64,000 nucleotides of DNA from Flavobacteriales bacterium (GCA_046306055.1 JBKDXR010000016.1:6132-70131), one strand, 5' to 3'; numbered from the stretch's first letter, positions 23,760-64,000 are shown. Program-made: numbers and translations. Notes: a model not told the origin generated them from the letters alone.

Positions 23760-25706
23760 ATGAGCCAGCCCACGCCCTCCTACCCGCTCCTGGAGCGCAT
23801 CACGCTTCCGGCCGACCTGCGTGCCCTGCCTGAGGAGCAACTGCAGCAGGTCTGCACCGAGCTGCGCGACTTCATCATCGACGTGGTGAGCGTGAAGGGT
23901 GGCCACTTCGGCGCCAGCCTCGGCGTGGTGGAACTGACCGTGGCCCTGCACTACGTGTTCAACACCCCCTACGACCAGCTGGTGTGGGATGTGGGTCACC
24001 AGGCCTACGGGCACAAGATCCTCACCGGCCGCCGCGAGGTGTTCCATACCAACCGCATCTACAAGGGCCTCAGCGGCTTCCCCAAGCGCAGCGAGAGCAC
24101 CTACGACACCTTCGGCGTGGGGCATAGCAGCACCAGCATCGGTGGCGCGCTGGGCATGGCCGTGGCCAGCAGGCTGAAAGGTGAGCAGGACCGCCAGTGC
24201 GTGGCCATCATCGGCGATGGTGCCATGACCGCCGGCCAGGCCTTCGAAGCGCTGAACCATGCGGGCGGCGCCGGCACGGACATGCTGGTGGTGCTCAACG
24301 ACAACTGCATGAGCATCGACCCGAACGTGGGCGCGCTCAAGGAATATCTGACCGACATCGCCACCAGCCACACCTACAACAAGGTGAAGGACGAGGTGTG
24401 GAACCTGCTGGGCAAGGTGAGCAAGTTCGGCCCCAACGCGCAGGCCATCGTGCAGAAGGTGGAGCATGCCGTGAAGGGCGCACTGCTCAAGCAGAGCAAC
24501 CTCTTCGAAAGCCTCAACTTCCGCTACTTCGGCCCGGTGGACGGACACGATGTGGACCACCTGGTGAAGGTGCTGAAGGACCTGCGCGACATCCCCGGTC
24601 CGAAGATCCTGCACACGATCACCAAGAAGGGTAAGGGCTACGGACCTGCTGAAGCAGGCAGCCCCACGGTGTGGCACGCTCCGGGCCTCTTCAACAAGGA
24701 GACCGGCGAGATCATCAAGGTGGTGCCCAAGAGCCCGCAGCCACCGAAGTACCAGGACGTATTCGGCCACAGCATCGTGGAGCTGGCCGAGAAGAACCCG
24801 AAGATCGTAGGGGTGACCCCCGCCATGCCTTCGGGCTGCTCGCTCAACATCATGATGAAGGCCATGCCCGATCGCGCTTTTGACGTGGGCATCGCCGAGC
24901 AGCATGCCGTTACGTTCAGCGCCGGGATGGCCACGCAGGGCCTGGTGCCCTTCTGCAACATTTATAGCTCGTTCATGCAGCGGGCCTACGACCAGGTGGT
25001 GCACGATGTGGCGCTCCAGAACCTCAATGTGGTATTCTGCTTGGACCGCGGCGGTCTGGCCGGTGCCGACGGCCCCACACACCACGGCAACTTCGACTTC
25101 GCCTACTTCCGCTGCATCCCCAACATGGTGGTGAGCGCGCCGATGAACGAAGAGGAATTGCGCGACCTGATGTACACCGCCCAGCTGCCGGACCAAGGCC
25201 CCTTCAGCATCCGCTACCCGCGCGGCGAGGGCGTGATGACCGAGTGGAAGACGCCCTTCAAGGCGATCAAGGTGGGCACGGGCCGCAAGCTGCGCTCCGG
25301 CACCGACATCGCAGTGCTCAGCATCGGTCACATCGGCAACCTGGCCGCCAAGGGCATCGACGCACTGGAGGCAGAAGGCTACAGCGTGGCGCACTACGAC
25401 ATGCGATTCGTGAAGCCCATCGACGAGCTGCTGCTGCACGAAGTGTTCAGCAAGTTCAAGCACGTGGTCACCGTGGAGGACCACGGCCTGCAGGGTGGCA
25501 TGGGCAGCGCAGTGCTGGAGTTCATGGGCGACCACGGATACGCCGCCCACGTGAAGCGCCTGGCGATCCCCGACAAGTTCATCGAACACGGCACACAGGC
25601 GGAACTCTACCGCGAATGCGGCATCGATGCCATCGCGGTGGTGGAGGCGGTGAAGGAACTTCTTGGTGAGAAGGGTGCGAAGAAGGAGGTGAGGGTGAGC
25701 GCGTGA
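23760..25706 (+). CDS. dxs: 1-deoxy-D-xylulose-5-phosphate synthase
   Basis: TPP-binding GDGAxT motif (IIGDGAMTAGQAFEALNHAG) and full-length Dxs architecture; start aligned on MSQPTPSYPLLERI (alternative upstream starts at 23727/23739); last 16 codons lie beyond the 119-bp repeat. Confidence 0.95.
   Translation: MSQPTPSYPLLERITLPADLRALPEEQLQQVCTELRDFIIDVVSVKGGHFGASLGVVELTVALHYVFNTPYDQLVWDVGHQAYGHKILTGRREVFHTNRIYKGLSGFPKRSESTYDTFGVGHSSTSIGGALGMAVASRLKGEQDRQCVAIIGDGAMTAGQAFEALNHAGGAGTDMLVVLNDNCMSIDPNVGALKEYLTDIATSHTYNKVKDEVWNLLGKVSKFGPNAQAIVQKVEHAVKGALLKQSNLFESLNFRYFGPVDGHDVDHLVKVLKDLRDIPGPKILHTITKKGKGYGPAEAGSPTVWHAPGLFNKETGEIIKVVPKSPQPPKYQDVFGHSIVELAEKNPKIVGVTPAMPSGCSLNIMMKAMPDRAFDVGIAEQHAVTFSAGMATQGLVPFCNIYSSFMQRAYDQVVHDVALQNLNVVFCLDRGGLAGADGPTHHGNFDFAYFRCIPNMVVSAPMNEEELRDLMYTAQLPDQGPFSIRYPRGEGVMTEWKTPFKAIKVGTGRKLRSGTDIAVLSIGHIGNLAAKGIDALEAEGYSVAHYDMRFVKPIDELLLHEVFSKFKHVVTVEDHGLQGGMGSAVLEFMGDHGYAAHVKRLAIPDKFIEHGTQAELYRECGIDAIAVVEAVKELLGEKGAKKEVRVSA
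25539..25657. repeat. 119-bp direct repeat, copy 1 (inside dxs 3' end)
   Basis: identical base-for-base to 33002-33120. Confidence 0.95.
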
Positions 25707-25727
25707 GTGGTGCGCTTTCCCCGTTGG

Positions 25728-26684
25728 TCATTCCTTTTTCACGTCCAACAGTTGAGATAGCTTTGCGTACTTAAGGTCTTTTTGGGCGGCCTTCGTGGAA
25801 CCGTACCCCTCTGGACTAACCGCCCACCGATAGAGAGCTTCTCTGTATTCGAATTCCATCTTGGCAAGGGTTGCCCCACGCCTGAAATTGTAGGCTGAAG
25901 CGCTCGGTGCTGACCCTGAGGTTCTGTTGAATCTTTCGAAGCCGCGCTTCGCATAGCCAAATGGATCCTTGTCCTCGTTGATCAAAGCCTGCTGCAGGAG
26001 GACCGCGATCTTCTCGAGATCTCGATAGTTCCCTGCCAATGGCAAGCTGTCGAGCCATGTATTGAAAGCTGAGGCATCGACCGGGATGGACTGCTTGAAG
26101 AGCATGTTCTTCCAGACAGTAGCGAAGGCTGCTGAGGGTTTCACCTCTTGCTCTTGCACCGAAGGCAGATACAATCCGAGCTGATTGATGCGGTCGAAGA
26201 GGTCCGGCAGAAGCATCTTCTCCAACTCCTCAACAGTCCTATTGGAAGCGAAGACGGGTTGAAAGCGCGCGAATTCTTCGCTATCCGACCCTACCCGGCG
26301 GAAGCGATACCATCCGTGCGTGCCCTTGTGATTAACTGTTTGCAGGGCCGTCATGAGCTTCTCCTGCACCCGCTTATTGAGGTTGTGGATCTCATCGAAG
26401 AAGAGCATGCCGGATTTGTTTGCTTCATGGAACAAGCCGGACTTATTGGAGACCGCCCCTGTGAACGCACCTTTTACGTGACCGAATAGCTCACTGAGCG
26501 CCATGGTGTCCCCTTCGACACTTGCACAGTTGAAGTATGTGGGTGGTCCTTTTAGCACCTTTTCACCGACCTCGTTGATCATCTTGGACTTCCCGATACC
26601 ACGGGCTCCGAGCACTAGGACTGAGAATCGGCCGGGGTTCTTGAAGAAGCTCTCCAGTTCGGCTTCTATTTTGTTAATGGGCAT
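25728..26684 (-). CDS. sigma54-interaction-domain AAA+ ATPase (bEBP-like, no receiver domain)
   Basis: Walker A GARGIGKS; GAFTGA loop in HVKGAFTGAVSNKSGLFHEANKSGMLFFDEIHNL; LAGNYRDLEKI matching the bEBP WPGNVRELEN box; possible degenerate C-terminal HTH (GSTKAAQKDLKYAKLSQLL); start at MPINKIEAEL (ATG 26684-26682). Confidence 0.8.
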   Translation of the reverse strand: MPINKIEAELESFFKNPGRFSVLVLGARGIGKSKMINEVGEKVLKGPPTYFNCASVEGDTMALSELFGHVKGAFTGAVSNKSGLFHEANKSGMLFFDEIHNLNKRVQEKLMTALQTVNHKGTHGWYRFRRVGSDSEEFARFQPVFASNRTVEELEKMLLPDLFDRINQLGLYLPSVQEQEVKPSAAFATVWKNMLFKQSIPVDASAFNTWLDSLPLAGNYRDLEKIAVLLQQALINEDKDPFGYAKRGFERFNRTSGSAPSASAYNFRRGATLAKMEFEYREALYRWAVSPEGYGSTKAAQKDLKYAKLSQLLDVKKE

Positions 26685-26703
26685 GATGTAAATATATCGT
26701 AGT

Positions 26704-26718
26704 GATGATAATATCATC
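26704..26718. promoter_or_regulatory. 15-bp palindrome gatgat-aat-atcatc in the divergent intergenic region (candidate UAS/operator)
   Basis: near-perfect dyad ~80-90 bp upstream of the sigma54-like element at 26799 and just upstream of the ATPase start. Confidence 0.35.
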
Positions 26719-26798
26719 TCGATAGATTTTCCGCCAAATGGCATAAGCCGCTCAAATCCAACAGACTATCTATGGCTCACGTGTTGGACGAAAGGTCT

Positions 26799-26812
26799 TG
26801 GCACGGCTTTGC
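26799..26812 (+). promoter_or_regulatory. sigma54-like -24/-12 element (TGGCAC-N4-TTGC; spacing one nt shorter than consensus)
   Basis: tggcacggctttgc about 30 nt upstream of the DUF4258 ATG and beside a bEBP-type ATPase gene; GG-N9-GC rather than the canonical GG-N10-GC. Confidence 0.3.
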
Positions 26813-26843
26813 TAATAGGAGGGTGCAACAAGTTCCCCAGCCC

Positions 26844-27137
26844 ATGCAACCCCACATCATCGTCCCCAGCCTGCACGCCGTGCAACGAGCCTACGAGCGT
26901 GGTATCACCACACCCATGATCCAAGACACCCTTCGGTGGGGGAAGAAACTCCACCGCCAAGGGCTGCGCTTCTTCGTCATGCTTCGCTGCTGCATCCCAC
27001 CCGGCTTGGATGAACGCTATGCGAAGCAATTGGTGAATGTGACCGTGGTGCTCGGCGGTGATGAGACCATCGTCACGGTGTACCGCAACCCGAAGGCTAT
27101 AGCCCACATCAAGCGCAAACCCAAGCGACTCCTATGA
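26844..27137 (+). CDS. DUF4258-family small protein (RelE/toxin-like fold)
   Basis: MQPHIIVPSLHAVQRAYERGIT matches the H-A-x-x-R-M-x-E-R-G-I signature of DUF4258; stop overlaps the next ATG (ATGA); an upstream in-frame ATG at 26772 is possible. Confidence 0.6.
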   Translation: MQPHIIVPSLHAVQRAYERGITTPMIQDTLRWGKKLHRQGLRFFVMLRCCIPPGLDERYAKQLVNVTVVLGGDETIVTVYRNPKAIAHIKRKPKRLL

Positions 27138-28414
27138 GGATCCTCAAGATCATCCATGGCTACCCTCCACTGTATAGCGCAGGGTCGGAGGTCTACAGCC
27201 AGAGCACCTGTGACCAGCTCGCGAAACATCACGAGGTGCTGGTGTTCACCCGCGAGGAGAATCCTTTCGCGCCAGACTTTTCGTTGCGGCGCGTAAAGGG
27301 GGAGAGCGGACCCAAGCGCGTCCTGGTGAACATGCCGCGCGGCAAGGATGGGTATCGCCACAAGGAGTTGGACGAGCGCTTCGCCGAGGTGCTCCGTTCG
27401 TTCGGTCCGGATGTGGCGCACATTAGCCATCTCAATCATCTGTCCACCGGCATCGTGGATGTGCTCAAGGAGGCTGGCATTCCCATCGTGTTCACCCTGC
27501 ACGACTTCTGGCTGATGTGCCCGCGCGGGCAGTTCTTGCAGCGCAATTTCGGAGGAGGTGTGGTGCATGCCCTGTGCGATGGCCAGGAGGACCGCAAGTG
27601 CGCCACATCGTGTTACGCATCCCTGATGTCCGGTGAAGAAGGCCAACATGAGCGTGACGAAGACTATTGGACAGCATGGATCCACCAGCGCATGCGCGCG
27701 TCCAAGCGCCTCTCTGAAAGCGTGGACCGGTTCATCGCCCCATCGCGCTACCTTATGGATCGCTTCATCCGCGACTTCGGACTGCCCGCTGAGAAGGTCA
27801 TGCACCTGGACTATGGCTTTCCGGTCCACTACCTGACGCCATCAGTGAAACGCACACCATCCGACAAGTACCGCTTCGGCTACATCGGCACGCACATCCC
27901 GGCAAAAGGGGTCAACCTGCTTCTTGAAGCATTCGATGGGTTGGGCGATGCGGCCGAGTTACACATTTGGGGCGCCAAGGATGAGCAAAGCACCCGAGCG
28001 TTGCGGAGCATGGCGGACGGCAAAGTCGGAATCCACTTCCATGGTCCGTATGTCAATCACAACCTGGCCAACGAGGTTTTCGCAGTAGTGGACTGCATTG
28101 TGGTGCCGTCCATCTGGATGGAGAACTCACCCTTGGTGATCCACGAGGCCCAGGCCTGTCATATCCCCGTGATCACAGCGAACGCCGGGGGTATGGCCGA
28201 GTATGTAGCGCACCAGGTGAACGGTCTGCTTTTCCAGCATCGCTCGGCGGTCGACCTGCGCCATTGGATGCGCTGGGCGGTGGAGCATCCACATACCATG
28301 AAGCAACTCGGCGAGCGCGGCTATCTCCATGTGGCTGACGGTGCCATTCCGGACATCGAAGAGCACTGCAAGGCACTCGAAAACATGTACACCAACCTCA
28401 TTAGCAGACCATGA
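27134..28414 (+). CDS. glycosyltransferase family 4 (GT-B, group 1)
   Basis: 426 aa; C-terminal E-x7-E motif (ENSPLVIHE) and GT4 Rossmann repeats; 4-nt overlaps at both ends. Confidence 0.8.
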   Translation: MRILKIIHGYPPLYSAGSEVYSQSTCDQLAKHHEVLVFTREENPFAPDFSLRRVKGESGPKRVLVNMPRGKDGYRHKELDERFAEVLRSFGPDVAHISHLNHLSTGIVDVLKEAGIPIVFTLHDFWLMCPRGQFLQRNFGGGVVHALCDGQEDRKCATSCYASLMSGEEGQHERDEDYWTAWIHQRMRASKRLSESVDRFIAPSRYLMDRFIRDFGLPAEKVMHLDYGFPVHYLTPSVKRTPSDKYRFGYIGTHIPAKGVNLLLEAFDGLGDAAELHIWGAKDEQSTRALRSMADGKVGIHFHGPYVNHNLANEVFAVVDCIVVPSIWMENSPLVIHEAQACHIPVITANAGGMAEYVAHQVNGLLFQHRSAVDLRHWMRWAVEHPHTMKQLGERGYLHVADGAIPDIEEHCKALENMYTNLISRP

Positions 28415-29433
28415 GCACATTCTGGCGGATCACCCTGGATACTAATCCAGAGGATTGCAACCTGAGCTGCACCATGTGCGAAGAGCACAGTGAGTTCAGC
28501 GATTTCATGCAACGCTTGTACGAGCGCACAGGCGTCAAGCGACGGCGCATGCCTTTCGACATGGTGCAGAAGGTGATGGAGCAGGCCGCTGCAATGGGTG
28601 TGCGTGAGATCATCCCGTCCACCATGGGCGAACCACTTCTCTACCGGCAGATGGATGAGCTGCTGGAGTTGGCCAAGGAGCTTGGCATGAAGGTGAATCT
28701 GACCACCAATGGCACCTTTCCGAAGCGCTCTGTGGAGGATTGGGCGGAGCGCATCGTGCCGGTCACTTCGGATGTGAAGATCTCGTGGAACGGCGCTACC
28801 AAGGAAACGACGGAAGCTGTGATGAAGGGCCTGAAGTTCGAGCAGGCCATCGCCAATGTGGAGCGCTTCATAGCGGTACGTGATGCACACCATGCAGCTA
28901 CAGGGCACTACTGCCGGGTGACCTTCCAGCTTACCTTCATGCAGAACAATATGCACGAGTTGCCGGATATCATCGCGCTCGCTGCAAGGCTTGGTGTGGA
29001 TCGTGTGAAGGGCCATCATCTCTGGGCACATTTCGAGGAGATCCAGCACCTGAACTTCAAGGCATCCGCCCAGACGATCGATCGTTGGAACGACATCGTG
29101 GATCTGGCCGTGGCCGCTGCCGCGAAACACCCGAGGCACGATGGAACACCTGTCCTGCTGGAGAATATCACTCCCCTGTTGCCACAGAATGGCCATGCGG
29201 TTCCCCACACCCACGAGTGCCCTTTCCTGGGCAAAGAGCTTTGGGTTTCTGCTACGGGCGACATCTCTCCCTGCTGCGCGCCGGACGACCTGCGGCGATC
29301 GCTGGGAGACTTCGGCAATGTGAGCGAACGGAGCCTAGCCGAGGTGGTGGCCGATGAAGCATACCAAGACCTGATGCGGGACTACCGCGACCGGCCGCTT
29401 TGTAGCACCTGCAACATGCGCAAGCCATGCTGA
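28411..29433 (+). CDS. radical SAM enzyme with SPASM/twitch-like C-terminal cysteine cluster
   Basis: CNLSCTMC (CxxxCxxC) radical-SAM motif at residues 16-23; C-terminal CPFLGKELWVSATGDISPCC ... CSTCNMRKPC auxiliary Fe-S cysteine pattern. Confidence 0.8.
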   Translation: MSTFWRITLDTNPEDCNLSCTMCEEHSEFSDFMQRLYERTGVKRRRMPFDMVQKVMEQAAAMGVREIIPSTMGEPLLYRQMDELLELAKELGMKVNLTTNGTFPKRSVEDWAERIVPVTSDVKISWNGATKETTEAVMKGLKFEQAIANVERFIAVRDAHHAATGHYCRVTFQLTFMQNNMHELPDIIALAARLGVDRVKGHHLWAHFEEIQHLNFKASAQTIDRWNDIVDLAVAAAAKHPRHDGTPVLLENITPLLPQNGHAVPHTHECPFLGKELWVSATGDISPCCAPDDLRRSLGDFGNVSERSLAEVVADEAYQDLMRDYRDRPLCSTCNMRKPC

Positions 29434-29951
29434 AAGTGCTGCTATTCGGCAATCTGGGGTCCGGCAAAAGCCATCTGGCCGAGCGGTTCATACAGCGCCA
29501 CCCGATCTACGAACACGTTGCCATTGATGCCTTCCGAAGGACCCACGGCGATGGAACCATGGCCGGGGAGCGCACCGCCAAGGAATGCTTCATCCTCAGC
29601 GTCCTTCCCGGTATGCCACAACTCATCGAAGCCACTGGACTTGGCGAGACCGGAGTGCTCTTGGCGGAACGACTGGATGCCATGGAAGAGCACATGCTCA
29701 TCGTGCTCCTGACCACTCCGCTTGAACGCTGTTTGACCCGACTCGAGCAGAGGATCTGGGACGTGCCTTATCCCGCACCTCCAGAGGAAGCCTTGGAGCT
29801 TGCCCGGAGGACCGATGCGTTCATAAAGGCGGGAGAAGTGGAAATGATCTGGGACAGGGCGGGGAGGACGCAACTGATCAAAGGGGATTGCTCCGATGAG
29901 CGATCCATGAACGAACTGCTGGAACGAATGGAACACCACCTGCTGAAATGA
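29427..29951 (+). CDS. small P-loop NTPase/kinase
   Basis: Walker A GNLGSGKSHL at the N-terminus; 174 aa, size and layout of shikimate/gluconate/nucleoside-kinase-like P-loop kinases. Confidence 0.65.
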   Translation: MLKVLLFGNLGSGKSHLAERFIQRHPIYEHVAIDAFRRTHGDGTMAGERTAKECFILSVLPGMPQLIEATGLGETGVLLAERLDAMEEHMLIVLLTTPLERCLTRLEQRIWDVPYPAPPEEALELARRTDAFIKAGEVEMIWDRAGRTQLIKGDCSDERSMNELLERMEHHLLK

Positions 29952-31360
29952 AACACCACAAGATCATCACCCAAGTCGAACAACGTATCGCCGCATTGGA
30001 CGGTATCGAGGCCGCCGTGCTCTATGGTTCGGTAGCAAGGGGCGAAGCGACCCCGAACTCGGACATCGACCTTGGCATCATCGTCAATGATCGGTTCGAT
30101 CGGGATGCGTTGATCGAGGCCTTTAAGGGCATGGAGCTTCAACCGGACCATGTGATGCCGGTATCGATGCGCAACAAGGTCGTTGCCTATTTCCAGGATA
30201 TGCGCATCAAATTGGAGGTGGCACTTCATCATGACCTGGCATCCTTTGGCCGCGACCTCTCAGGCTCGGTCATTCCGGAGCACCTGCTGCCCAATGCTGT
30301 GCTGCTGGACCGAACAGGCACTCTGGTGCAGCGCATCCTCGACATGAACGGCTCGGGATACAAGCCCTACTCCGTAGAGGAACTCGTGCAGAAGTTCATC
30401 TACGAGTTCGACAATCTGTCCACCTTCCACCGCCGGAGCGACGGTTACCGGGCACTCTACTTTCATCAGATCGCGCTGCATTGCCTGGTGCAACTGATGA
30501 ACATGCGCAGTAACGGCGACCGGTTCCAGTTCCTGCCCCGCAACCTGTTGGTGAACATCAAGGACAAGGAGCAGCTGCGCCGCATTTACGAGCTGAACGG
30601 ATCCATGTATCTGCCGGACATGAACCGCAAGAAGCGCGCGCTGCTGGACATGCTCTATGCCACGCTCGCAGAGTTGGCTTATCCTGAGTTGGATGAAGTA
30701 CGCTTGGTGTTGGAACGCATCTACGACAGGGACCGGCATTGGAACCTGCGTAGTGTAGGTACGCATGGCCCCATGATACGTTGGCCGAATCTGTTGCGAA
30801 GCAGCCTGCCCGCGATCATGCAGCCGGACGTATTGAGTGATCTGCTGGAGCGGAATGCAGTACACACCATCATCGACCTGCGCGCACCTCGTGAACTGGA
30901 AGAGCATCCATACGCAGAGGATGCAATATCCAATGTGCGGTATGTGCATGCGCCGTTCGACCCGTGGGCCCAACCCGATTGGTTCAAGGAGCCGGAATTC
31001 CAGCAGGGCGAGCACCAGGAGATCGCGTACCGCTTCTTTGCATTGGGCTGTCGACAGAGCATCAAGGACATCGTGGACGCGCTCATCGATGTTCCCGAGG
31101 ACATGGGCGCCATCATCCATTGCCATGCGGGGAAGGACCGGACCGGCATTGTCTGCACCTTGCTTCACCTGTTGGTCGGCGCTGAAATGGAAGATGTGAT
31201 GACCGACTACCTCGCCAGCGAATCGGACACCTATGCGCACAACCTGCAAGTGGTGCTCGATGTCATTGAACGCCAAGGGGGCATCCGGGCATACCTCGGC
31301 AACTGTGGTCTGAGCGATGCCCAGATCGATCGACTTCAACAACGCCTGAGCCATGGCTGA
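29948..31360 (+). CDS. fusion protein: minimal nucleotidyltransferase (pol-beta superfamily) N-terminal domain + protein-tyrosine/dual-specificity phosphatase-like C-terminal domain
   Basis: GSVARGEATPNSDIDLGII (GS...DxD NTase motif) at residues 27-45; C-terminal HCHAGKDRTG (CX5R phosphatase P-loop). Confidence 0.75.
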   Translation: MKHHKIITQVEQRIAALDGIEAAVLYGSVARGEATPNSDIDLGIIVNDRFDRDALIEAFKGMELQPDHVMPVSMRNKVVAYFQDMRIKLEVALHHDLASFGRDLSGSVIPEHLLPNAVLLDRTGTLVQRILDMNGSGYKPYSVEELVQKFIYEFDNLSTFHRRSDGYRALYFHQIALHCLVQLMNMRSNGDRFQFLPRNLLVNIKDKEQLRRIYELNGSMYLPDMNRKKRALLDMLYATLAELAYPELDEVRLVLERIYDRDRHWNLRSVGTHGPMIRWPNLLRSSLPAIMQPDVLSDLLERNAVHTIIDLRAPRELEEHPYAEDAISNVRYVHAPFDPWAQPDWFKEPEFQQGEHQEIAYRFFALGCRQSIKDIVDALIDVPEDMGAIIHCHAGKDRTGIVCTLLHLLVGAEMEDVMTDYLASESDTYAHNLQVVLDVIERQGGIRAYLGNCGLSDAQIDRLQQRLSHG

Positions 31361-32306
31361 GCGACCTGAGCAACTCTTCACCGGATACTGGCGCTACCTG
31401 GCCGTCCGGGCCGCCTGCAAACTGGACCTGTTCGAGCATATCGCTGCAGGGGTGCGCACTGTGCCGGGCCTTTGTGCTGCCATTTCCTGCGATCAGCGCT
31501 CCCTGGATAGCCTTGTTGGTGCGCTGGTCCATGAAGAATACCTGTTGCATAGCGAGGAGGGCCTGCGGCTATCTCTGGAAGCCCAGCGGCTTTGTGCTGG
31601 CCATCCTACTAGCGTGAAACATGCCTGCCTGCTGTGGGGTGCAGAGCACATGGATGCCTGGCAACACCTTGACGAAAGCATCCGATCGGGACAGCCGGTT
31701 TTCACGAAGCTGTTCGGCGACACCTTCTTCCGCTACTTGGACGGGCATCCAGAACGGGCCGTGGAGTATCACAGGGCCATGTTCGAATACGCGCGGCAGG
31801 ACTATGCGGGGATCGGTGAGGTCTTGGACCTATCAGCACACCGGTCGGTCATGGATGTTGGAGGTGGCAATGGGGCGCTGGTCGGGTGCTTGAGGGCAGG
31901 TCATCCGGGGGTGTCCTTCCGAATCTTCGACATCCAGGACCACCGCACAGATCATTCGCGGGATATTCTGTTCATCCAAGGCGACTTCTTCAACGCGGTT
32001 CCTGAAGGTTCGGATGCCTTGCTACTCAGCAGGGTGATCCATGATTGGGATGATGCGCAGGCGTTGCAAATACTCCGGAATTGTCACTCCGCACTACCTC
32101 GGGAGGGGGCCCTTTTCCTCATCGAGAACGACCTGTCAATGCTCGCCGACGGTGGACATCTGCTGTCGCTGAACATGCTGGCCACCTGCGGTAGTCGGGA
32201 GCGCAGCGTGCAGGAATATCAACAACTGCTGGAAGGCTCCGGATTCCGGGTCCAAGGTCTTGTCCACCATGGAAATCAGGCGATCATCAAAACTGTACGC
32301 GCATGA
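31353..32306 (+). CDS. class I SAM-dependent O-methyltransferase (small-molecule OMT family 2)
   Basis: VMDVGGGNGALV SAM-binding motif I; N-terminal dimerisation-like region; ~320 aa; no DNA-MTase DPPY/NPPY motif. Confidence 0.8.
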   Translation: MAERPEQLFTGYWRYLAVRAACKLDLFEHIAAGVRTVPGLCAAISCDQRSLDSLVGALVHEEYLLHSEEGLRLSLEAQRLCAGHPTSVKHACLLWGAEHMDAWQHLDESIRSGQPVFTKLFGDTFFRYLDGHPERAVEYHRAMFEYARQDYAGIGEVLDLSAHRSVMDVGGGNGALVGCLRAGHPGVSFRIFDIQDHRTDHSRDILFIQGDFFNAVPEGSDALLLSRVIHDWDDAQALQILRNCHSALPREGALFLIENDLSMLADGGHLLSLNMLATCGSRERSVQEYQQLLEGSGFRVQGLVHHGNQAIIKTVRA

Positions 32307-32998
32307 ACTGGCATGATATCAAACCCTCCTTGGACGGTGCGCACTTCCTTCTCGGGGGACAACCGATCTGGATCGACCGCTTCATGGCCGTTATGTCCTT
32401 CCATGCTCCTGGCGTGGCACCCGTACAGGATGTTTCCGGTTGGTACCACATTGATGCAGAAGGTTGTCCCTTGTACAAAGCGCGCTACCACAAGGCCTAT
32501 GGCTTCTATTGTGACCGTGCAGCGGTCAAGGACAAGACAGGTTGGTTCCACATCGACCTTAACGGCGATGCGTGCTATCCTGAGCGCTACGCGTGGTGCG
32601 GCAATTTCCAAGAGAATTGCTGCGCTGTACGGTCATCGGATGGATACCATCATATCGATCCGTTAGGCCGGGCGCTGTATGCGGAACGCTGGCAATACGC
32701 TGGGGATGCGCGGGATGGGGTCATTTGTGTGCAAAGCGCCGGAGAGGCCTTCCACATCCGCAAGGATGGGAGCAAGCTGTACCCGGCGACCCATCGTTTC
32801 GTGCATGTGTTCCACAAGGGCTTCGCCGTTGCGTTAGACACGTTGGGTTGGTGCCATATCGACCGATCGGGACAACCCATCCATGCGCATCGCTTCCAGT
32901 ACTTGGAGCCGTTCTACAATGGTGTGGCGGTAGCGATCGATGGGGAGGGTCGGAACGTGATGGTCAATGAGGTGGGTGAGGTGACCTTGTTGGGATAG
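32303..32998 (+). CDS. WG-repeat protein (about five ~45-aa repeats with conserved GW-[HY]-I-D)
   Basis: repeats GWYHIDAEG, GWFHIDLNG, GYHHIDPLG, AFHIRKDG, GWCHIDRSG; stop codon lies 3 nt before repeat copy 2. Confidence 0.65.
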   Translation: MNWHDIKPSLDGAHFLLGGQPIWIDRFMAVMSFHAPGVAPVQDVSGWYHIDAEGCPLYKARYHKAYGFYCDRAAVKDKTGWFHIDLNGDACYPERYAWCGNFQENCCAVRSSDGYHHIDPLGRALYAERWQYAGDARDGVICVQSAGEAFHIRKDGSKLYPATHRFVHVFHKGFAVALDTLGWCHIDRSGQPIHAHRFQYLEPFYNGVAVAIDGEGRNVMVNEVGEVTLLG

Positions 32999-33001
32999 GG
33001 C

Positions 33002-33120
33002 TACGCCGCCCACGTGAAGCGCCTGGCGATCCCCGACAAGTTCATCGAACACGGCACACAGGCGGAACTCTACCGCGAATGCGGCATCGATGCCATCGCG
33101 GTGGTGGAGGCGGTGAAGGA
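33002..33120. repeat. 119-bp direct repeat, copy 2
   Basis: identical to 25539-25657. Confidence 0.95.
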
Positions 33121-33177
33121 GATGGTGGGGGCCTCTGCTGTTGGCTTCGGCCGGGCTGCGGGTAAGAGGGGATGATC
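33002..33177 (+). pseudogene. displaced dxs 3'-end fragment (last ~58 codons with an alternative tail ...VKEMVGASAVGFGRAAGKRG*)
   Basis: reads in the dxs frame through the repeat and continues 19 codons to TGA; no start codon or upstream gene body. Confidence 0.8.
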
Positions 33178-33290
33178 CGTCACTGCCCTTCTCATTAGTG
33201 CTTCGTTAACGATGGACGCCTGCTTCAAGGAGCAATAAGCGACTATTTCTGGGCTTGTATTCACCGTATATGCGTATATATGGTGACACG

Positions 33291-34413
33291 GATTCAACTC
33301 ATAAACGCAATCGGATAGACTGACAGGAGAGCTGATGATTTCTTCAGGAGGAGGAGAGGCTTTTACCCCTCGATCCCCGCTGAATGGAGGATGCGGCCTA
33401 CCCTTGTTCTGGGGTCCAATCCGTTGCAAGAATGAGCCACATCACCGATGAGCAAAGGTGCATCATACAACGCATGAAGAAGGCCGGTCATCAGCAGAAG
33501 CGGATCGCCGAGGCCATTGGCAAGTCCGAGTCGGCGGTGAGCCGCGAGATCAGGCGCAACTGCGACCAGCGCAGCGGCGCGTAGAACGCTGACCTGGCTG
33601 CCCGCAAGAGCGCGCAGCGCAAGAAGGACAAGCCCAAGGCGGTGCGCTTCACCGCTGCCATTCGCGCTAAGGTGGAACGGCAACTGGCCCAGAAGCTCAG
33701 CCCGGAGCAGATCGTGGGCGTTGCCGTGCGCGCGGGCCGCGACATGGTCTCCCATGAGCGCATCTATCAGCATATCTGGCAGAACAAGAAGTGCGGCGGC
33801 CACCTGCACGAGCGCCTGAGCACGCGCGGTAAGCCCTACCGCAAGCGAGGCGCGGCCAAGGACAGCAGAGGCATCATCAAAGACCGGGTGGGCATCAATC
33901 AGCGGCCCACAGTGGTTGAGAGGCGCAAGCGGTTCGGCGACCTGGAGATGGACACGATCATAGGTCGCAAGCACAAGGGCGCCATCGTCACGATCAACGA
34001 CCGCGCCAGCGGGATTCTATTGATGCGCAAGGTGCCCCGCAAGGAATCTGGTCTGGTGGCCCAGGCCGCTATCGAAGCGCTGCGCCCTTGGAAACCGCTG
34101 CTGCACAGGGCCACCAGCGACAACGGGAAGAAGTTCGCCGATCATCAGCTCATCGCCCGCAAGCTCCAGTTGGACTTCTTCTTCGCCAAGCCCTACCATA
34201 GCTGTGAGCGCGGCTCCAACGAGAACCTCAACGGCCTCATCCGCCAGTACATCCCCAAGCAGACCGATTTCGACACCCTCACCGATGAGTTCATCCAGTA
34301 CGTCCAAGACCAGATCAACAGCCGACCAAGGAAACACTTCATCTTCGACACCCCGAGCAACGAGTTCAACCGACTAACCCGATGACCCAGCGATTGCGTT
34401 TATGAGTTGAATC
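33291..34413 (+). mobile_element. IS30-family insertion sequence (1123 bp)
   Basis: perfect 23-bp terminal inverted repeats gattcaactcataaacgcaatcg (33291-33313) and cgattgcgtttatgagttgaatc (34391-34413); internal DDE transposase; possible 2-bp CG target duplication. Confidence 0.85.
33432..34385 (+). pseudogene. IS30-family transposase interrupted by an in-frame TAG (33582-33584)
   Basis: HTH part (MSHITDEQRCIIQRMKKAGHQQKRIAEAIGKS...) and DDE catalytic part (MRFTAAIRAK...) are in the same frame, separated only by one TAG codon. Confidence 0.75.
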
Positions 34414-53616: not shown

Positions 53617-53800
53617 GTTCCTTCCCGTAGCGGATCGCGTGCCGATCGTATCCGGCAAGGATGGCCTGATGCACCTTGGACCAAGGAATGGACCAGGGCA
53701 TCGTCTCATGCGAACAAGGACGGACATTGTCCAGCGTCTAAGCCAAACGGCAAACCATCGCGGGAAATGGCCTGGTGCCGGGGTTGCCCCCCTGAGCAGT

Positions 53801-54790
53801 TCAACGCTTCTGCAACCGCGCGTTGCCCAATGTGCCATCGGTACCGATCCAGGTCAGCGTATAGTGGCCGCTGGGCACATCGTTCATCTCCAGCGTCAGT
53901 CGGCGGGTCTGGGGCGAATTGAACTCAACGGGCCATTGCTTGCGCACCTGGCCACTGCCATCCACCAGCTGTAGCACGGTGCGGTCCGCCTTGGTGGCGG
54001 GCAGGTCGATGTAGGTGACGTCATCACAAGGATCAGGGAAGGCGCGCAGGGCGATCGGGCGGAAAACGCTTGCGGGGTCGTCCTGCCAGGAGCCGTCCAA
54101 CCAACGCAGGGTGTGCGCTGGCTCCCATCCGGTGCGCTCAATAACGACCAGCAACGGCATCGGCGTCCGGTCGGAGTACCATGCCAGGCGTACTTCACTG
54201 AGAAGCACCTGGTCGGGGTCGTTGCGCGGGGTTACGCGCAGTTCATGCCTTACGCGCAGCACGTCCTTCACCACCCCGTAGGGCATCACCAGCGTTCCCC
54301 AAGCATCGGCACGGGCGGAGATCGTGGTCACGCGAAGGTCGATCCGGCCCGCACCGGTAACGACCGCGAGCCCCGTGTCGCGCCAAGCTGAATACAGCCC
54401 ACAAGGCAGGTCCAGGATGGCCAGCGGTGGGTCGAAACGCACCAAGGCGTTCTCGGTATAAGTGCCCAACCAGAACAAGGCCGTATCTCCGCGCTGGTAA
54501 TAAGCGGTAGGCTCGCCGGGCACCTGCAAGACCAGTGCTGCGGTCGGGAATGCCCCCGCACCCGGCGCAATATCGGTGGTGGTCCATCGGTAGGCCACAA
54601 GCGAGCCGTTCGGCAGGCCGCTCAGGTCCCATTTGGCGTTCTCGCCGCCCGGTAACGGCATCGTCACCCACGGCACATCGTGATAACCATACACCGTGCC
54701 GGCCGTGGCCACGGCCCGTTCACCGATCACCGGCTGCGCCGAGAGCATCAAAGCGATACCCGTGAACAACAGCACCAAGGCGTACTTCAT
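53801..54790 (-). CDS. secreted hypothetical protein with T9SS type-A C-terminal sorting domain
   Basis: signal peptide MKYALVLLFTGIALMLSAQ; C-terminal ...VLQLVDGSGQVRKQW...GHYTLTWIGTDGTLGNARLQKR. Confidence 0.7.
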   Translation of the reverse strand: MKYALVLLFTGIALMLSAQPVIGERAVATAGTVYGYHDVPWVTMPLPGGENAKWDLSGLPNGSLVAYRWTTTDIAPGAGAFPTAALVLQVPGEPTAYYQRGDTALFWLGTYTENALVRFDPPLAILDLPCGLYSAWRDTGLAVVTGAGRIDLRVTTISARADAWGTLVMPYGVVKDVLRVRHELRVTPRNDPDQVLLSEVRLAWYSDRTPMPLLVVIERTGWEPAHTLRWLDGSWQDDPASVFRPIALRAFPDPCDDVTYIDLPATKADRTVLQLVDGSGQVRKQWPVEFNSPQTRRLTLEMNDVPSGHYTLTWIGTDGTLGNARLQKR

Positions 54791-60110: not shown

Positions 60111-61586
60111 ATGCCCCGTCGCGCACTGTTCGTGGTCCTTGCCGCCTTCGGGCTCAGCGTCGCAGTGCGCGCGCCCCTGCTGAACAGGCCCCTGAGCGCC
60201 CACCACGAGTTCTGCACGGCCATCACGTTGATCACCCTGCACAACTGGTGGACCGATGGCATGGCCGCGCATGCGGGCGCTCCCACTGGCGTGTTCGTGA
60301 ACGAGGCCCGCACCATGCTGCCGCCCGGGCAGTACGATGCCAATGCGCAGGCCCTGGCGCTCTACTACTTCTCGCACCCTCCCCTGGCCTTCGACCTGCC
60401 TTACGCGCTCTTCGTGCTCACGGGCACACCGCCCAATGCGCTCGGGCTCGAACTGTTCAATGTGTTCTTCCACCTCGTCACCGCGCTGTGCCTCTTTGGT
60501 GCTTTGCACGAATTCGCGAGGAAAGGTTCGCGGGCTCCGCTCTATGCGGCCCTGCTCTACCTCTTCATGCCGGCGCCGCTCTGGTTCCACAGCAACGCGT
60601 ACATGGGCGACCTCTTCGTGCAGAACACCTGGGCCATCCATGTGCTTGCGGCCATGGTCTACTTCCACCGCGGCGACCCCACCGACCGGCTGCGCCTGGC
60701 GCTCTTCGGCCTCACGCTCTTCCTCACCGTGTACACCAGCTGGTTGGGGGTGTTCGCTGGTGCGGCGAGCGGTGCGCTGGCCCTTTGGCTCGTTTGGCGT
60801 GGTCAGGACCGCCGCTGGCTACGTCTTCTTCCGGTCGTCGCTCTGGCCATTATCGCCGCGCTCGGCCTTACCGCGTGGCGCTACACGCAGCTCGTGGACC
60901 TCGATGCCTTGCTGGGCTATTTCGTGTCGCGCTTCGAGGTGCGTGGCACCACGGGTACGGGCGTGGACCTCGGTGAGGCGCTTCGCACACTCCTGTTCGT
61001 GAACTACCGCATCAGCTACCTGCCTGTGATCGTGCTGCTGCTGGGCCTGTTGGTCTGGCGGAAGAAGAGTTCGCGAGATCGTTCACCTGTGTTGGACCAC
61101 GGGACCATGCTGTTCGTGGTGCTCACCGGACTGCCCGTGCTGCTGGACCATGCCGTGCTGCTCCCCTATGCCGAGCACGATTTCGCTGCGTTGAAAGGCG
61201 GACTGCTCCTCTGTGGACTTGGTGGGCTACTACTGGACCGCCTACCCACGCGACCAGCGAACACCCTGCTGGCAGCGACCTGTGTGGCCGGTGTGCTGTA
61301 TTTCTATCGCACCAACCCCCTGCCCGGACACGATGGCGGTCGCTCTGCGGTTGAGCGCGACCTGGGCGAGGCGATGGGGCGCGAGGCTCGGCCGTATGAG
61401 ATCATCTTCTTCGAAGGCCCGGCCCCGGAACCGCAGGTGCTGTGGTACGCCAAACGCCACGTGGTGCAGGTGAACACCAGCGCCGAGGCCATGCACTTCC
61501 TGCGCGAACGCGGGTTGCACAAAGGCATCATCTACCGCCAGACGCCCGAGGGCCTCCAGCACGAACGGGTGGAGGTCCCTTCGTAG
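60111..61586 (+). CDS. polytopic membrane protein, putative GT-C-type glycosyltransferase; family uncertain
   Basis: 491 aa with ~11 hydrophobic helices; divergent from the preceding membrane-protein gene. Confidence 0.5.
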   Translation: MPRRALFVVLAAFGLSVAVRAPLLNRPLSAHHEFCTAITLITLHNWWTDGMAAHAGAPTGVFVNEARTMLPPGQYDANAQALALYYFSHPPLAFDLPYALFVLTGTPPNALGLELFNVFFHLVTALCLFGALHEFARKGSRAPLYAALLYLFMPAPLWFHSNAYMGDLFVQNTWAIHVLAAMVYFHRGDPTDRLRLALFGLTLFLTVYTSWLGVFAGAASGALALWLVWRGQDRRWLRLLPVVALAIIAALGLTAWRYTQLVDLDALLGYFVSRFEVRGTTGTGVDLGEALRTLLFVNYRISYLPVIVLLLGLLVWRKKSSRDRSPVLDHGTMLFVVLTGLPVLLDHAVLLPYAEHDFAALKGGLLLCGLGGLLLDRLPTRPANTLLAATCVAGVLYFYRTNPLPGHDGGRSAVERDLGEAMGREARPYEIIFFEGPAPEPQVLWYAKRHVVQVNTSAEAMHFLRERGLHKGIIYRQTPEGLQHERVEVPS

Positions 61587-61597: not shown

Positions 61598-61705
61598 TCA
61601 GGAAGAGTCGACCGTGCGGAACCTCTCGTTCCGCATCAGTTGCTGGTGAAAGGGGACGGTGCTGCCCACGCCCTCGATCACATACGCGCTCTTTGCACGC
61701 TCCAT
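61598..61705 (-). pseudogene. degenerate copy of the accC 3' end (last ~35 codons)
   Basis: MERAKSAYVIEGVGSTVPFHQQLMRNERFRTVDSS* parallels MERALSEYVIEGVHTTIPFHLQLMQNEKFRAGDFTTKF...; DNA ~75% identical to 62966-63100. Confidence 0.65.
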
Positions 61706-62021
61706 CGGGTCCCTCCAACAGGTGGTAGATCGTGCTCGAAGGACCGTACTTCGCCATCACCTCATCGAGCCATGCGGGATCCTTCAGAGCGGGGCGGTCA
61801 TGGATGAACGTGGCTGGCAAGCAACGTTAGTGACCTAAGACGCCCTAAGTTGGAGCGTGCCGCGCAGTCCGGGTGGCGCACATCACCAACAGCAGTACGC
61901 ACACGTACAGCGGAGTTGTCCGTGAGTGATCACGGAGGATGCGAACAAGGAATCCAGGACGAAGTGTGACCGATCGGAGCGAGTGCACGACCCAAGTTCC
62001 GGTCAGCACATCAGCGAAGAA

Positions 62022-62927
62022 CTACTTCGGCTTGGTGAAGTAGCCGAAATCCGCTGTGCCGAATCCGTACTTGTTCACACCTGAGCCCGGCATGCCGCCA
62101 CGGTAGAAATAGCAAGCTCCGGTCTTGCAATTCATCACCGCCCGCTCGTTCGTCAGCGCTTCCCCTTTGAGCGGGGTAGCGCAATCATCGGCCATGGCGA
62201 TGCAGACATTGGCATCGACCCCGGTGCGGATCATCTCATAGAGAACCTCCAATGTGACGATCTCCACGTTGCCCTTGTACACCTTGGCGATATCCTCGAG
62301 CGAGGCGTTCACGTGGGCGTTGGCGATGTACAAGGTCGTGTTCTTCAACGCGGTGATGCCGGCCAAATACTCGGCTTTCGAATCCTCAAAGTATTCATCA
62401 TGCGGCTTGTCCATGAAGGCGCCGGCATATTGATGGCCCCATAGGAGGTTGCGCACGGCAATGGCAGCGATGACATCCGGCGGGTGGCACATGAGCGTTT
62501 CGATGTTCAAGCTGTTGCACGGACCGCTTTGGTCGTACATCCCGAACCAGATCGACTTGTTGATCGTGTACGTGGAGCCGGACCCGAGCTCGGTCTCCTT
62601 CACCTGAATGTTGAAGCAATGCGCTCCGGGATTCGACTTGTACAATTGTTCGAGATCCTGCTCACCGGTGACAATACGCAGCTTAACACCATTCGGCAAG
62701 TTGCGCTGCAATTCAGCGGCAAAGGCCTCGTTCAGTTCTGGGCGATCCGTGTGTGCCCAGTAGATGAAGTCCTTGTAGGTGTAGCTATCGCTTGCCTTGT
62801 TCTCGGCGTGGATGCTGACCCGCCCTTTCCAAAGGGCCTTCACATCGCTGTACGTGTTGTAGTAAGGATTCTGGGCCTGAGCGATCGACATCGCGGCAAA
62901 GGCCAATGAAGAGACGATCGCACGCAT
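62022..62927 (-). CDS. secreted hypothetical protein (301 aa) in a lower-GC segment
   Basis: signal peptide MRAIVSSLAFAAMSIAQAQ; visibly lower GC (~55%) than flanks; no recognised motif. Confidence 0.55.
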   Translation of the reverse strand: MRAIVSSLAFAAMSIAQAQNPYYNTYSDVKALWKGRVSIHAENKASDSYTYKDFIYWAHTDRPELNEAFAAELQRNLPNGVKLRIVTGEQDLEQLYKSNPGAHCFNIQVKETELGSGSTYTINKSIWFGMYDQSGPCNSLNIETLMCHPPDVIAAIAVRNLLWGHQYAGAFMDKPHDEYFEDSKAEYLAGITALKNTTLYIANAHVNASLEDIAKVYKGNVEIVTLEVLYEMIRTGVDANVCIAMADDCATPLKGEALTNERAVMNCKTGACYFYRGGMPGSGVNKYGFGTADFGYFTKPK

Positions 62928-62953
62928 GCTTGTGTTGTGCTGTTCGGTGCAGG

Positions 62954-64000
62954 CTACGGCTTCTTGATCTCGAAGTCCTCCAGGAACTTAGTGGTGAAGT
63001 CGCCGGCGCGGAACTTCTCGTTCTGCATCAGCTGCAGGTGGAAGGGGATCGTGGTGTGAACGCCTTCGATCACGTACTCGCTCAGGGCCCGTTCCATCTT
63101 GGTAATGGCCTCCTCCCGCGTCTGTGCGCTCACGATCAGCTTGCCGATCATGCTGTCGTAGTTCGGCGGAATGGTGTAGCCCGCATACACGTGGGTATCC
63201 ACCCGCACGCCATGGCCACCGGGGCTGTGGTAGCTGGTGATCTTGCCCGGCGTGGGACGGAAGTTGTTGAAGGGGTCCTCCGCGTTGATGCGGCACTGGA
63301 TGCTGTGGCGCGTGGGCTCGTAGTTGAGGCCACTGATGGGGATGCCGGCAGCGATCTTGATCTGCTCGCGGATCAGGTCGTAGTCGATCACTTCCTCGGT
63401 GATCGTGTGTTCCACCTGGATCCGCGTGTTCATCTCCATGAAGTAGAAGTTCCGGTCCTTGTCCACCAGGAACTCCACGGTGCCCACGCCCTCGTAGTTC
63501 ACGCTGGCGGCGGCCTTGATCGCGGCCTCGCCCATCTTCTTGCGCAGGGCCTTGGTCATGAAGGGCGAAGGTGTCTCCTCCACGAGCTTCTGGTGTCGGC
63601 GCTGGATGCTGCAGTCGCGCTCGCTCATGTGGCAGAAGGTGCCGTACTGGTCACCCGCGATCTGGATCTCGATGTGGCGCGGCTCCAGGATGTACTTTTC
63701 CATGTACATGCCCGGGTTCCCGAACGCTGCACCGGCCTCCTGGCTGGCCTTCTCGAAAGCTTCCTGGAACTCCTCCTCCTTCCATACCAGGCGCATGCCT
63801 TTGCCACCACCACCGGCAGTGGCCTTCAGGATCACAGGGTACCCGATGCGCTTGGCCTCTTTCTTGGCCAGCGCGATGTCCGTGACAAGGCCTTCGGTGC
63901 CCGGAACAACAGGCACCCCGGCCGCGATCATGGTCGCTTTGGCGGTGGCCTTGTCGCCCATGGCCTCGATCTGCTCCGGTGTGGCGCCGATGAACTTGAT
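62954..64000 (-). CDS. accC: acetyl-CoA carboxylase biotin carboxylase subunit, C-terminal 348 codons (N-terminus beyond the window end)
   Basis: ATP-grasp and biotin-carboxylase C-terminal domain blocks (GGGGKGMRLV, EMNTRIQVEHTITE, GYTIPPNYDSMIGKLIV); frame open to position 64000. Confidence 0.95.
   Translation of the reverse strand: MKFIGATPEQIEAMGDKATAKATMIAAGVPVVPGTEGLVTDIALAKKEAKRIGYPVILKATAGGGGKGMRLVWKEEEFQEAFEKASQEAGAAFGNPGMYMEKYILEPRHIEIQIAGDQYGTFCHMSERDCSIQRRHQKLVEETPSPFMTKALRKKMGEAAIKAAASVNYEGVGTVEFLVDKDRNFYFMEMNTRIQVEHTITEEVIDYDLIREQIKIAAGIPISGLNYEPTRHSIQCRINAEDPFNNFRPTPGKITSYHSPGGHGVRVDTHVYAGYTIPPNYDSMIGKLIVSAQTREEAITKMERALSEYVIEGVHTTIPFHLQLMQNEKFRAGDFTTKFLEDFEIKKP

Follow-up and report, generated by a model that had tools for sequence, protein, structure and literature searches.

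Displaced gene ends in a hypervariable island between dxs and accC of a Flavobacteriales bacterium are consistent with recombination anchored on one side

Repeat Pairs and Gene Context in the Analyzed Region

This study deals with a 64,000-nucleotide (nt) stretch of DNA from a Flavobacteriales bacterium (GCA_046306055.1 JBKDXR010000016.1:6132-70131; hereafter, the window), in which three genes are each followed by foreign DNA (the cargo) and then by a fragment resembling their own 3' end. The genes concerned are dxs (locus 1; 23760–25706, plus strand), encoding 1-deoxy-D-xylulose-5-phosphate synthase (Pfam families DXP_synthase_N, Transket_pyr, and Transketolase_C), a GIN-domain gene linked to an ECF sigma factor gene (locus 2; 43087–44337, plus strand; Pfam DUF2807), and the biotin carboxylase gene accC (locus 3; 62954–64000, minus strand), which is cut by the window end. 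The whole window was compared with itself using self-BLASTN and a repeat finder, and 3/3 repeat pairs were retrieved by both. The dxs pair (in-gene copy 25536–25657, downstream copy 32999–33120; 122 nt, 99% identity, E = 4e-56) contains 119 perfectly matching nucleotides, the sole mismatch being the third base. The GIN pair (44147–44306 and 46090–46249) extends over 160 nt without gaps (71%, E = 6e-16), and the accC pair (62998–63098 and 61606–61706) over 101 nt (78%, E = 2e-16). Apart from these pairs, significant self-matches were limited to repeats within genes (4.5–4.9 kb and 11.6–13.7 kb), the inverted termini of an IS30 element, and a small number of weak matches.

The order of gene 3' end, cargo, and fragment is common to all three loci, and amino acid (aa) similarity to the gene end was retained in 3/3 fragments. 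Downstream of each repeat copy, the sequences are unrelated and no duplicated downstream DNA was found. The GC content of the cargo amounted to 0.53–0.59 for the dxs-associated gene cluster, approximately 0.60 for the S41 peptidase gene at the GIN locus, and 0.556 for the secreted-protein gene at the accC locus, compared with 0.62–0.69 for the flanks. A reading of the window made from the sequence alone (the sequence-only reading) had already described three loci sharing one layout, including a perfect 119-bp dxs repeat, now recovered within the 122-nt match, and a GIN repeat placed at 46107–46262, which was recovered with slightly different borders.

To place these loci in context, the Dxs protein was scanned against one genome per species, resulting in 80 loci onto which the proteins of the window were mapped. 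Dxs shares 73–95% aa identity with its counterparts in these 80 genomes, almost all of which are Flavobacteriales or other Bacteroidota metagenome-assembled genomes (MAGs), the closest being uncultured Flavobacteriales MAGs. AccC is 77–98% identical (aa) to the AccC-like open reading frame (ORF) located beside dxs in relatives, and its orthologue in the related locus L109 features the Pfam families Biotin_carb and ATP-grasp. In four relatives (L015, L018, L020, and L023), dxs (plus strand) and accC (minus strand) are convergent immediate neighbours. The gene g60111 (named, like others below, after its start in the window) alone separates them in L043, g53801, g58719, and g60111 lie between them in L009 and L017, and the inserts become progressively larger among other relatives. 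The region from 25.7 to 62.95 kb (~37 kb) is therefore a single hypervariable island that has grown between the convergent core genes dxs and accC, the dxs and accC loci forming its two borders and the GIN locus residing inside.

Comparison with related genomes, as the sequence-only reading had proposed for polarizing the loci, yielded empty-site relatives for all four events considered here, namely the three in the window and one in a further species (L010). In the occupied genomes, each fragment adjoins the same neighbour as the gene end does in the empty-site relatives: the dxs fragment (dxs') adjoins a zeta-toxin gene, the GIN fragment (GIN') an ABC transporter gene, and the accC fragment (accC') g60111. 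All four events are polarized alike: the fragment is the native 3' end of the recipient, still beside its native neighbour, and the end of the intact gene is a different allele brought in with the cargo. The empty sites, together with the lower GC content, also bear out the earlier view that the cargo is inserted DNA.

The GIN Locus

At the GIN locus, the cargo is an S41 peptidase gene (44334–45974, plus strand; Pfam Peptidase_S41), the start of which overlaps the GIN stop codon. The GIN' fragment (46083–46268, plus strand) represents a GIN 3' end next to the ABC transporter gene at 46526–47413. The empty site is found in L122 (GIN protein 71% aa identity), where the ECF sigma, GIN, and ABC ATPase genes follow one another without an S41 gene. 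As in the window, an ATGA overlap fuses the GIN gene to the S41 gene in L123 and L124 (88% nt identity), the S41 orthologue of L123 measuring 546 aa.

The last 150 nt of the GIN gene fall into two allele classes that are approximately 30% apart. The gene ends of the window, L123, and L124 form class I, all linked to S41 and sharing 97% identity, and class II comprises those of L122, L120, and the L088 gene together with the window fragment (73–87% among themselves). The end of the window's GIN gene is only 67–69% identical to the native class II ends, whereas the GIN' fragment matches the L122 gene end, located directly before the ABC gene, at 82–86% and the end of the window gene at 71%. Sliding identity between the window and L122/L120 amounted to 88–96% from 42650 to ~43800 and dropped to 56–68% from ~43840 to the stop codon. 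The GIN gene is therefore chimeric and switches sharply at a breakpoint near 43840, some 500 nt short of its stop codon. Given this drop and the S41-linked class I end, its last ~500 nt (43840–44337, plus strand), which are contiguous with the S41 gene, arrived together with it. Since only ~165 nt of the native GIN end were left, with some 335 nt of the recipient gene probably having been replaced, the event is an insertion plus deletion with one homologous anchor and not a duplication. The assumption that the repeat copy was made by the event itself accordingly fails at this locus at least, the fragment being what remained of the recipient's gene end.

Contig L088, originating from the same population and 98.2% identical overall to the window, also reproduces the GIN locus. 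It differs from the window by a 260-nt patch with 53 mismatches located exactly at the GIN 3' end, the L088 allele being class II-like; this gene end is still exchanged by homologous recombination. Over most of 10 kb, window and L088 are 99.9% identical, and they differ by 12–20% in two patches, 42700–43600 (the 3' half of the ECF sigma gene and the N-terminal region of GIN) and 44100–44363 (the GIN 3' end). These patches indicate recent allelic recombination with diverged donors.

The dxs Locus

The in-gene copy of the dxs repeat (25536–25657, plus strand) continues into a terminal sequence referred to as tail A (ELLGEKGAKKEVRVSA, followed by the stop), which is the common dxs tail type among relatives. 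Within 21 nt of this tail begins the cargo, a cluster of eight genes (25728–32998) characterized by means of Pfam and PADLOC. In order, it encodes an RtcR/PspF-like AAA ATPase (on the minus strand), a hypothetical protein, a GT4 glycosyltransferase, a radical SAM/SPASM protein, an AAA_33 protein, a nucleotidyltransferase–tyrosine phosphatase fusion, an O-methyltransferase, and a WG-repeat protein. The dxs' fragment (32999–33175, plus strand) consists of the same 122-nt block as the gene copy and then proceeds through tail C (EMVGASAVGFGRAAGKRG, followed by the stop) to an in-frame stop codon, tail C being tail A with an insertion of ~32 nt that shifts the reading frame. The succession of dxs, cluster, fragment, and IS30 recurs in more than ten independent metagenome and MAG assemblies (ENA, JGI, NCBI, and Logan).

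Homologues of the nucleotidyltransferase–phosphatase protein led to L117, in which dxs is followed by the same eight genes (76.6% nt identity), a dxs fragment, the zeta-toxin gene, and a small ORF (p52), and then by the secreted-protein gene and accC in opposite orientation. The window's dxs' fragment is orthologous to that of L117, and an internally deleted relic of it is kept in L113/L114. There the cluster shows 78.6% nt identity, the junction past the stop codon of the WG-repeat gene is the same as in the window (GGGATAG followed by GGCT), and both ends of the dxs fragment alone survive before the zeta-toxin gene. In L009, L012, and L016, which represent the empty site, the zeta-toxin gene and p52 lie right after dxs; thus, this is the native order, and the fragment preceding the zeta-toxin gene in L117 is the native dxs end. 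Because the cluster and its junction are shared with L117 and L113/L114 at 76.6–78.6% nt identity, the dxs insertion predates the divergence of these species.

This age is at odds with the identity of the repeat. The sequence-only reading had taken the differing repeat identities as a sign of successive events of different ages, and a recent insertion, as suggested by the 99% repeat, was considered and rejected on account of the shared cluster. Between the window and L117, 12 sites were concerted, that is, gene and fragment agree within each genome and the genomes differ, as opposed to 0 sites grouping the copies by position. The dxs copies have undergone concerted evolution, for which gene conversion is the simplest cause. 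With a 99% repeat bracketing an old insertion, repeat identity gives no date.

In the window, the genes extending from the zeta toxin to NTP_transf_5 in L113 have been replaced by IS30 and about 19 kb of further DNA, beginning right after the dxs' fragment, which may itself have anchored this later replacement. The IS30-family insertion sequence (33289–34415, plus strand; rve domain and HTH_38 ORF) is delimited by 25-bp perfect inverted repeats (33289–33313 and 34391–34415). Two separate ORFs, one of 50 aa (HTH_38) and one of 247 aa (rve), make up its transposase, a division that could reflect a frameshift or a pseudogene. No obvious target-site duplication was visible around it, and the element is fixed in all population contigs examined. 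Variants of the same population with an empty or excised dxs site, sought through the context of a cNMP-binding protein, were not encountered: 10/10 places listed (19 contigs) featured the full layout. Likewise, a search of the dxs' fragment region for promoter- or terminator-like sites returned none.

Some further observations concern this locus. The gene pair directly following dxs in empty-site genomes, a zeta-toxin/AAA_33 gene plus a 52-aa ORF (L009, 11962–12635; L012, 12088–12770; L016, 2693–3372; L117, with the fragment between, 12063–12748), resembles a toxin–antitoxin-like pair. In the closest relative, L008 (CAZJTB010000151.1; Dxs 95% aa identity), the contig stops inside the dxs tail, just past the repeat block; as assemblers stop at repeats, this genome may carry a dxs fragment too. 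The eight-gene cluster is kept as a unit in several Bacteroidota contigs (L117, L113, L114, and L118), with identities down to 55% (aa) in L118. Its ATPase is of the RtcR/PspF-like AAA-HTH type without a CARF domain (PADLOC, 2e-53), the GT4 glycosyltransferase gave a weak 'GT4-conflict' match, the radical SAM/SPASM protein shows weak similarity to prokaryotic viperins, and 659 homologues were found for the nucleotidyltransferase–tyrosine phosphatase fusion. The cluster may represent a conflict/defence or a small-molecule modification system.

The accC Locus

The cargo of the accC locus is a single gene (62022–62927, minus strand; GC content 0.556) encoding a protein of 301 aa with a signal-peptide-like N-terminus and no Pfam match. 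The accC' fragment (61606–61706, minus strand; MERAKSAYVIEGVGSTVPFHQQLMRNERFRTVD) is a decayed remnant of the native 3' end and abuts the convergent gene g60111 (60111–61586). The sequence-only reading had interpreted this repeat as the very last part of accC; the repeat itself is real, but it corresponds to accC codons −47 to −15 on the minus strand and does not include the last 14 codons. At the empty site, represented by L009, L013, and L043, accC is directly convergent with g60111, with no gene in between.

Few homologues of the cargo protein were detected, and only in the window, L109, and L117 are they located at the accC site; more distant homologues (58–60% identity) reside in unrelated contexts elsewhere in their genomes. 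L109 (cargo 81% aa identity) shows the same order of accC, cargo, fragment, and g60111 as the window, its fragment being 93.5% identical to its own accC end and reaching the stop codon. The accC fragments of the window and L109 share the motif FHQQL, and all intact genes feature FHLQL. This shared motif, along with the same cargo at the same site, suggests that the locus goes back to one old event predating the split of the window and L109 species. Where accC' and the window gene disagree, the relatives side with the gene in a ratio of 16:5, which marks the fragment as the decaying copy.

A Fourth Event in Another Species

In L010, the end of dxs is repeated 7.7 kb downstream (181 nt, 89% identity). 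The contig names of this genome (tig...) suggest a long-read assembly. The L010 cargo is unrelated to that of the window and encodes a CHAT protein, a TPR protein, a sigma-70-like protein, a DUF4372 piece, and a LamG/type IX secretion system (T9SS) protein. The fragment abuts g53801, as dxs itself does in the empty-site genome L011, and carries the KEMLP tail of the L011/L014/L017 group, whereas the L010 gene ends in another tail type. The fragment starts 35 nt upstream of the start of the window's dxs' fragment. The two L010 copies differ mostly at third codon positions (3/4/13 differences at the first, second, and third positions; 12 synonymous versus 6 non-synonymous codons), and therefore both evolved as parts of functional genes.

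Recombinases, Motifs, and Frequency of Gene-End Fragments

No tRNA or tmRNA gene was found in the window. Integrase, excisionase, and recombinase domains were absent from the selected island ORFs scanned with Pfam (unscanned stretches being shorter than ~830 nt each) and from the L010 insert. The sole recombinase-type gene among the scanned island ORFs is the IS30 DDE transposase, which is not located at a junction. Local alignment of the dxs, accC, and GIN targets gave scores within the distribution obtained for shuffled sequences, with no motif shared by the three targets. Nor is there a common att core at a fixed position, given that no motif is shared and the dxs fragments start 35 nt apart. 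The cargo ends are marked by repeats of 100–180 nt and not by short (2–15 bp) target-site duplications with terminal inverted repeats; the only terminal inverted repeats in the self-comparison of the whole window are those of IS30, an element that lies past the dxs' fragment and belongs to none of the three cargos.

When additional accC and dxs fragments, as well as N-terminal pieces of any gene in the window, were sought by tblastn, the known three alone were returned, plus generic matches between C-terminal sorting domains. Furthermore, an automated search for gene 3' ends with an intergenic copy was applied to 1.73 Mb of related loci. It recovered the three pairs of the window (GIN and accC being mislabelled by crude ORF calls), L010, L088 (corresponding to the GIN locus), and a weak candidate in L104; the other repeats were tandem paralogues or shared sorting/C-terminal domains. 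The island is clearly enriched in gene-end fragments, in a comparison biased by most loci having been chosen around dxs. In the L104 candidate, 44 nt at the 3' end of a 642-nt gene (7481–7524) recur intergenically at 93% identity 1.4 kb downstream (8891–8934), which may be either another such scar, at an unrelated locus, or a short repeat element.

Origin of the Displaced Gene Ends

The three window events and that of L010 are best explained, with a probability of roughly 60%, by homology-facilitated illegitimate recombination (HFIR) in which the gene served as a one-sided homology anchor, a mechanism that the sequence-only reading had named among its options. It fits because of the uniform polarity and because of the breakpoint and deletion at GIN. 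DNA of a related donor, homologous on one side only, would have entered at least three times here and once in another species. The incoming piece would start inside the conserved gene (dxs, GIN, or accC) and bring along the donor's 3' end and the DNA downstream of it, that is, the eight-gene cluster, the S41 peptidase gene, or the secreted-protein gene. On the left, a homologous crossover would occur inside the gene; on the right, where homology is lacking, an illegitimate joint would form a short way downstream, still within the recipient's copy of the gene. We infer a RecA-type anchor combined with an illegitimate joint as the enzymology, as well as the route of DNA entry. The product would be an intact chimeric gene, the cargo, and the last 100–200 nt of the recipient gene still attached to their original neighbour, so that the apparent bracket would consist of a donor end and a recipient leftover instead of a target duplication. 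Later gene conversion between the copies would have brought the old dxs pair to 99% identity, unlike the accC and GIN pairs.

The foreign DNA is contiguous with the donor anchor, as seen from the ATGA overlap between the class I GIN end and S41 and from the dxs tail, which is followed by the cluster within 21 nt. The 3' bias is expected without targeting and does not call for the 3'-end-targeting mechanism proposed earlier: with convergent flanking genes, the island is bordered by 3' ends alone, and only events leaving the anchor gene intact survive. A visible remnant, moreover, results only when the joint falls inside the gene.

Several points weigh against HFIR. A clear upstream breakpoint, with recipient-like sequence before and donor-like sequence after it, was demonstrated for GIN alone and is less clear at dxs and accC. 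When the illegitimate joints were compared with donor-like and recipient-like sequences, they proved too eroded for base resolution, and no microhomology was demonstrable; at the GIN locus, where the S41-type homology ends at 45990 and GIN' begins at 46083, the intervening ~93 nt are unassigned. The sizes of the remnants are oddly similar (~100–200 nt). The window dxs copies are identical over 119 nt and the L010 copies over their first 57 nt, and strict HFIR, with a crossover upstream of the joint, explains such blocks only by identity of donor and recipient or by later conversion. Moreover, the window (gene, tail A, GEKGAKKEVRVSA; fragment, tail C, VGASAVGFGRAAGKRG) and L117 (gene, tail C, LSASAESFGRTTGRRG; fragment, tail A, GEKGVKKGVRVSA) carry their dxs tails in exchanged positions, which requires at least one further recombination event on one copy.

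Some of these points are accommodated more easily by a Campbell-type integration, in which a circle containing the gene 3' end and the cargo would enter by a single homologous crossover and thereby create a true direct repeat, as in the published model for rhs C-terminal displacement (PMC2935791). It predicts the same polarity, explains the blocks of identity in the window and L010, agrees with the identical junction between cargo and fragment in the window and L113 (WG-repeat stop followed by GGCT), and makes the tail swap easy through crossovers on either side of the 32-nt indel; a unit of gene, cargo, and fragment could also move between strains by double crossover, with gene and fragment as arms. 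However, the GIN crossover ~500 nt before the stop and the ~165 nt of native end would necessitate an extra deletion of 335 nt, none of the 19 contigs of the same population represents an empty or excised variant, and the origin of the circle remains unexplained, so that we consider this alternative possible but rather unlikely. A tyrosine or serine recombinase, either supplied in trans or lost in the meantime, could instead have integrated an element carrying a surrogate 3' end of its target. This would produce the topology and polarity of attL and attR with 3'-end replacement, and the direct repeats around the insert with the native end distal, the low GC content of the cargo, and the twofold independent use of dxs (window/L117 lineage and L010) are in line with it. 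The lack of an integrase, excisionase, or tRNA gene in the scanned ORFs of the island or the L010 insert, the two cargos consisting of a single gene of 0.9–1.6 kb, the three targets without a common motif, the 35-nt shift between the fragment starts of the two dxs events, and the GIN breakpoint 500 nt upstream of the stop with its deletion make this other option of the sequence-only reading improbable.

Duplication in situ, in which the fragments would be decayed tandem duplications or long target-site duplications and the cargo would have been inserted separately, draws on the distribution of differences over codon positions, even for the GIN gene and fragment (15/15/16) and nearly even for accC (4/8/10), as in neutral decay, and on the 16:5 agreement of relatives with the accC gene. 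It is already largely refuted by the allele-class data, as the GIN fragment groups with the L122 gene and not with the window gene and the two classes are about 30% apart; the unrelated sequence after each copy, the single gene copies in empty-site relatives, and the differences between the L010 copies, typical of purifying selection, render such duplication remnants very improbable. A chimeric assembly path through strain variants sharing a gene 3' end would be conceivable for an uncultured source, and the L008 contig ends exactly inside the dxs tail. Yet, the dxs layout recurs in the independent assemblies mentioned above, L010 shows the same signature in an apparently long-read assembly, and L117, L088, and L109 reproduce loci 1, 2, and 3, respectively, which makes an artefact scarcely credible.

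Gene and retained fragment could also be regarded as a pair of homology arms around an integrase-free cassette, movable between strains or species by homologous recombination. The fragment would then serve as the next landing pad, and conversion would keep the arms matched to the host gene. This reading, which we regard as doubtful, would explain why 19 kb of new DNA come after the tail-C fragment of the window.

Relation to Known Recombination Footprints

Flexible genomic islands are hypervariable segments at a fixed place between conserved genes, the content of which is exchanged by recombination in the flanks. The island described here resembles them in its variable content between two conserved genes, differing among close relatives, but its flanking genes bear visible internal scars of individual additive events. 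With integrase-mediated islands and prophages that enter the 3' ends of tRNA or protein genes and provide a substitute 3' end, the loci have in common the order of gene end, island, and displaced native end, the direct repeats, and the low-GC cargo. They differ from these in having no integrase, no common att core, a variable fragment start, single-gene cargos, and, at GIN, an upstream breakpoint with deletion.

HFIR is known from transformation in Acinetobacter, Streptococcus pneumoniae, and Pseudomonas stutzeri, and from conjugation in E. coli (PMC3240628). The present loci share with it the single homologous anchor, the attached foreign DNA, a probable illegitimate joint nearby, a probable loss of recipient DNA, and the absence of a site-specific recombinase, and the GIN locus shows this topology directly. 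Unlike the experimental cases, these are natural, old, and fixed events of an uncultured Flavobacteriales lineage, deduced by comparing genomes. A comparable footprint is that of rhs C-terminal displacement, for which homologous recombination with circular intermediates was proposed (Jackson et al., 2009, PMC2935791), and that of the effector–immunity arrays of the Vibrio cholerae type VI secretion system (T6SS), for which HFIR was explicitly proposed (Kirchberger et al., 2017, PMC5361080). As in these systems and in orphan modules of CdiA C-terminal regions (CdiA-CT) with immunity genes, a new 3' end arrived with low-GC cargo, the old end was shifted downstream, no integrase is involved, and the displaced fragment keeps a conserved piece nearly identical to the upstream gene (99% for dxs and 93.5% for accC in L109). 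In contrast, the anchors are the housekeeping genes dxs and accC and the anti-sigma-like GIN gene instead of polymorphic toxins, the cargo consists of a biosynthetic or conflict-like cluster, an S41 peptidase, and a secreted protein instead of toxin tips with immunity genes, and the selective logic of immunity-gene retention is not evident. The loci are thus a further natural instance of the rhs/T6SS-type recombination footprint and not members of those families.

As the topology is already known from rhs and T6SS C-terminal displacement, the novelty is modest. Natural footprints of one-anchor recombination are, nevertheless, rarely documented outside polymorphic-toxin loci, and four polarized events with empty-site relatives illustrate how a flexible island between housekeeping genes grows without dedicated mobile-element machinery. 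The interest lies mainly in these cleanly polarized events and in the erasure of the age signal by conversion, the dxs case being a caution that repeat identity is no insertion clock, as gene conversion resets it. For genome annotation, short intergenic fragments that match the 3' end of the preceding gene offer a way of detecting and polarizing old insertions.

Further Features of the Window

At 39483–39956 (plus strand), a 5'-truncated gene remnant comprises the last third of a Fib_succ_major domain and a Por_Secre_tail sorting domain. It is positioned exactly at a jump in GC content from ~0.58 to ~0.66 and shows 30–37% aa identity to the C-terminal ends of the genes at 52960–53838 and 51131–52963. 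This remnant is a further relic of illegitimate joining inside the island. An imperfect palindrome of 94 nt (72%) was noted at 51020–51103, in the gap separating the convergent ABC permease/M1 peptidase gene from that at 51131–52963. Outside the island, the ORF at 11558–14659 features internal direct repeats (11648–11790 and 12191–12333, 78%; 13142–13213 and 13607–13678, 89%), and its C-terminal domain, probably a T9SS sorting domain, was also found in the ORF at 20449–23013.

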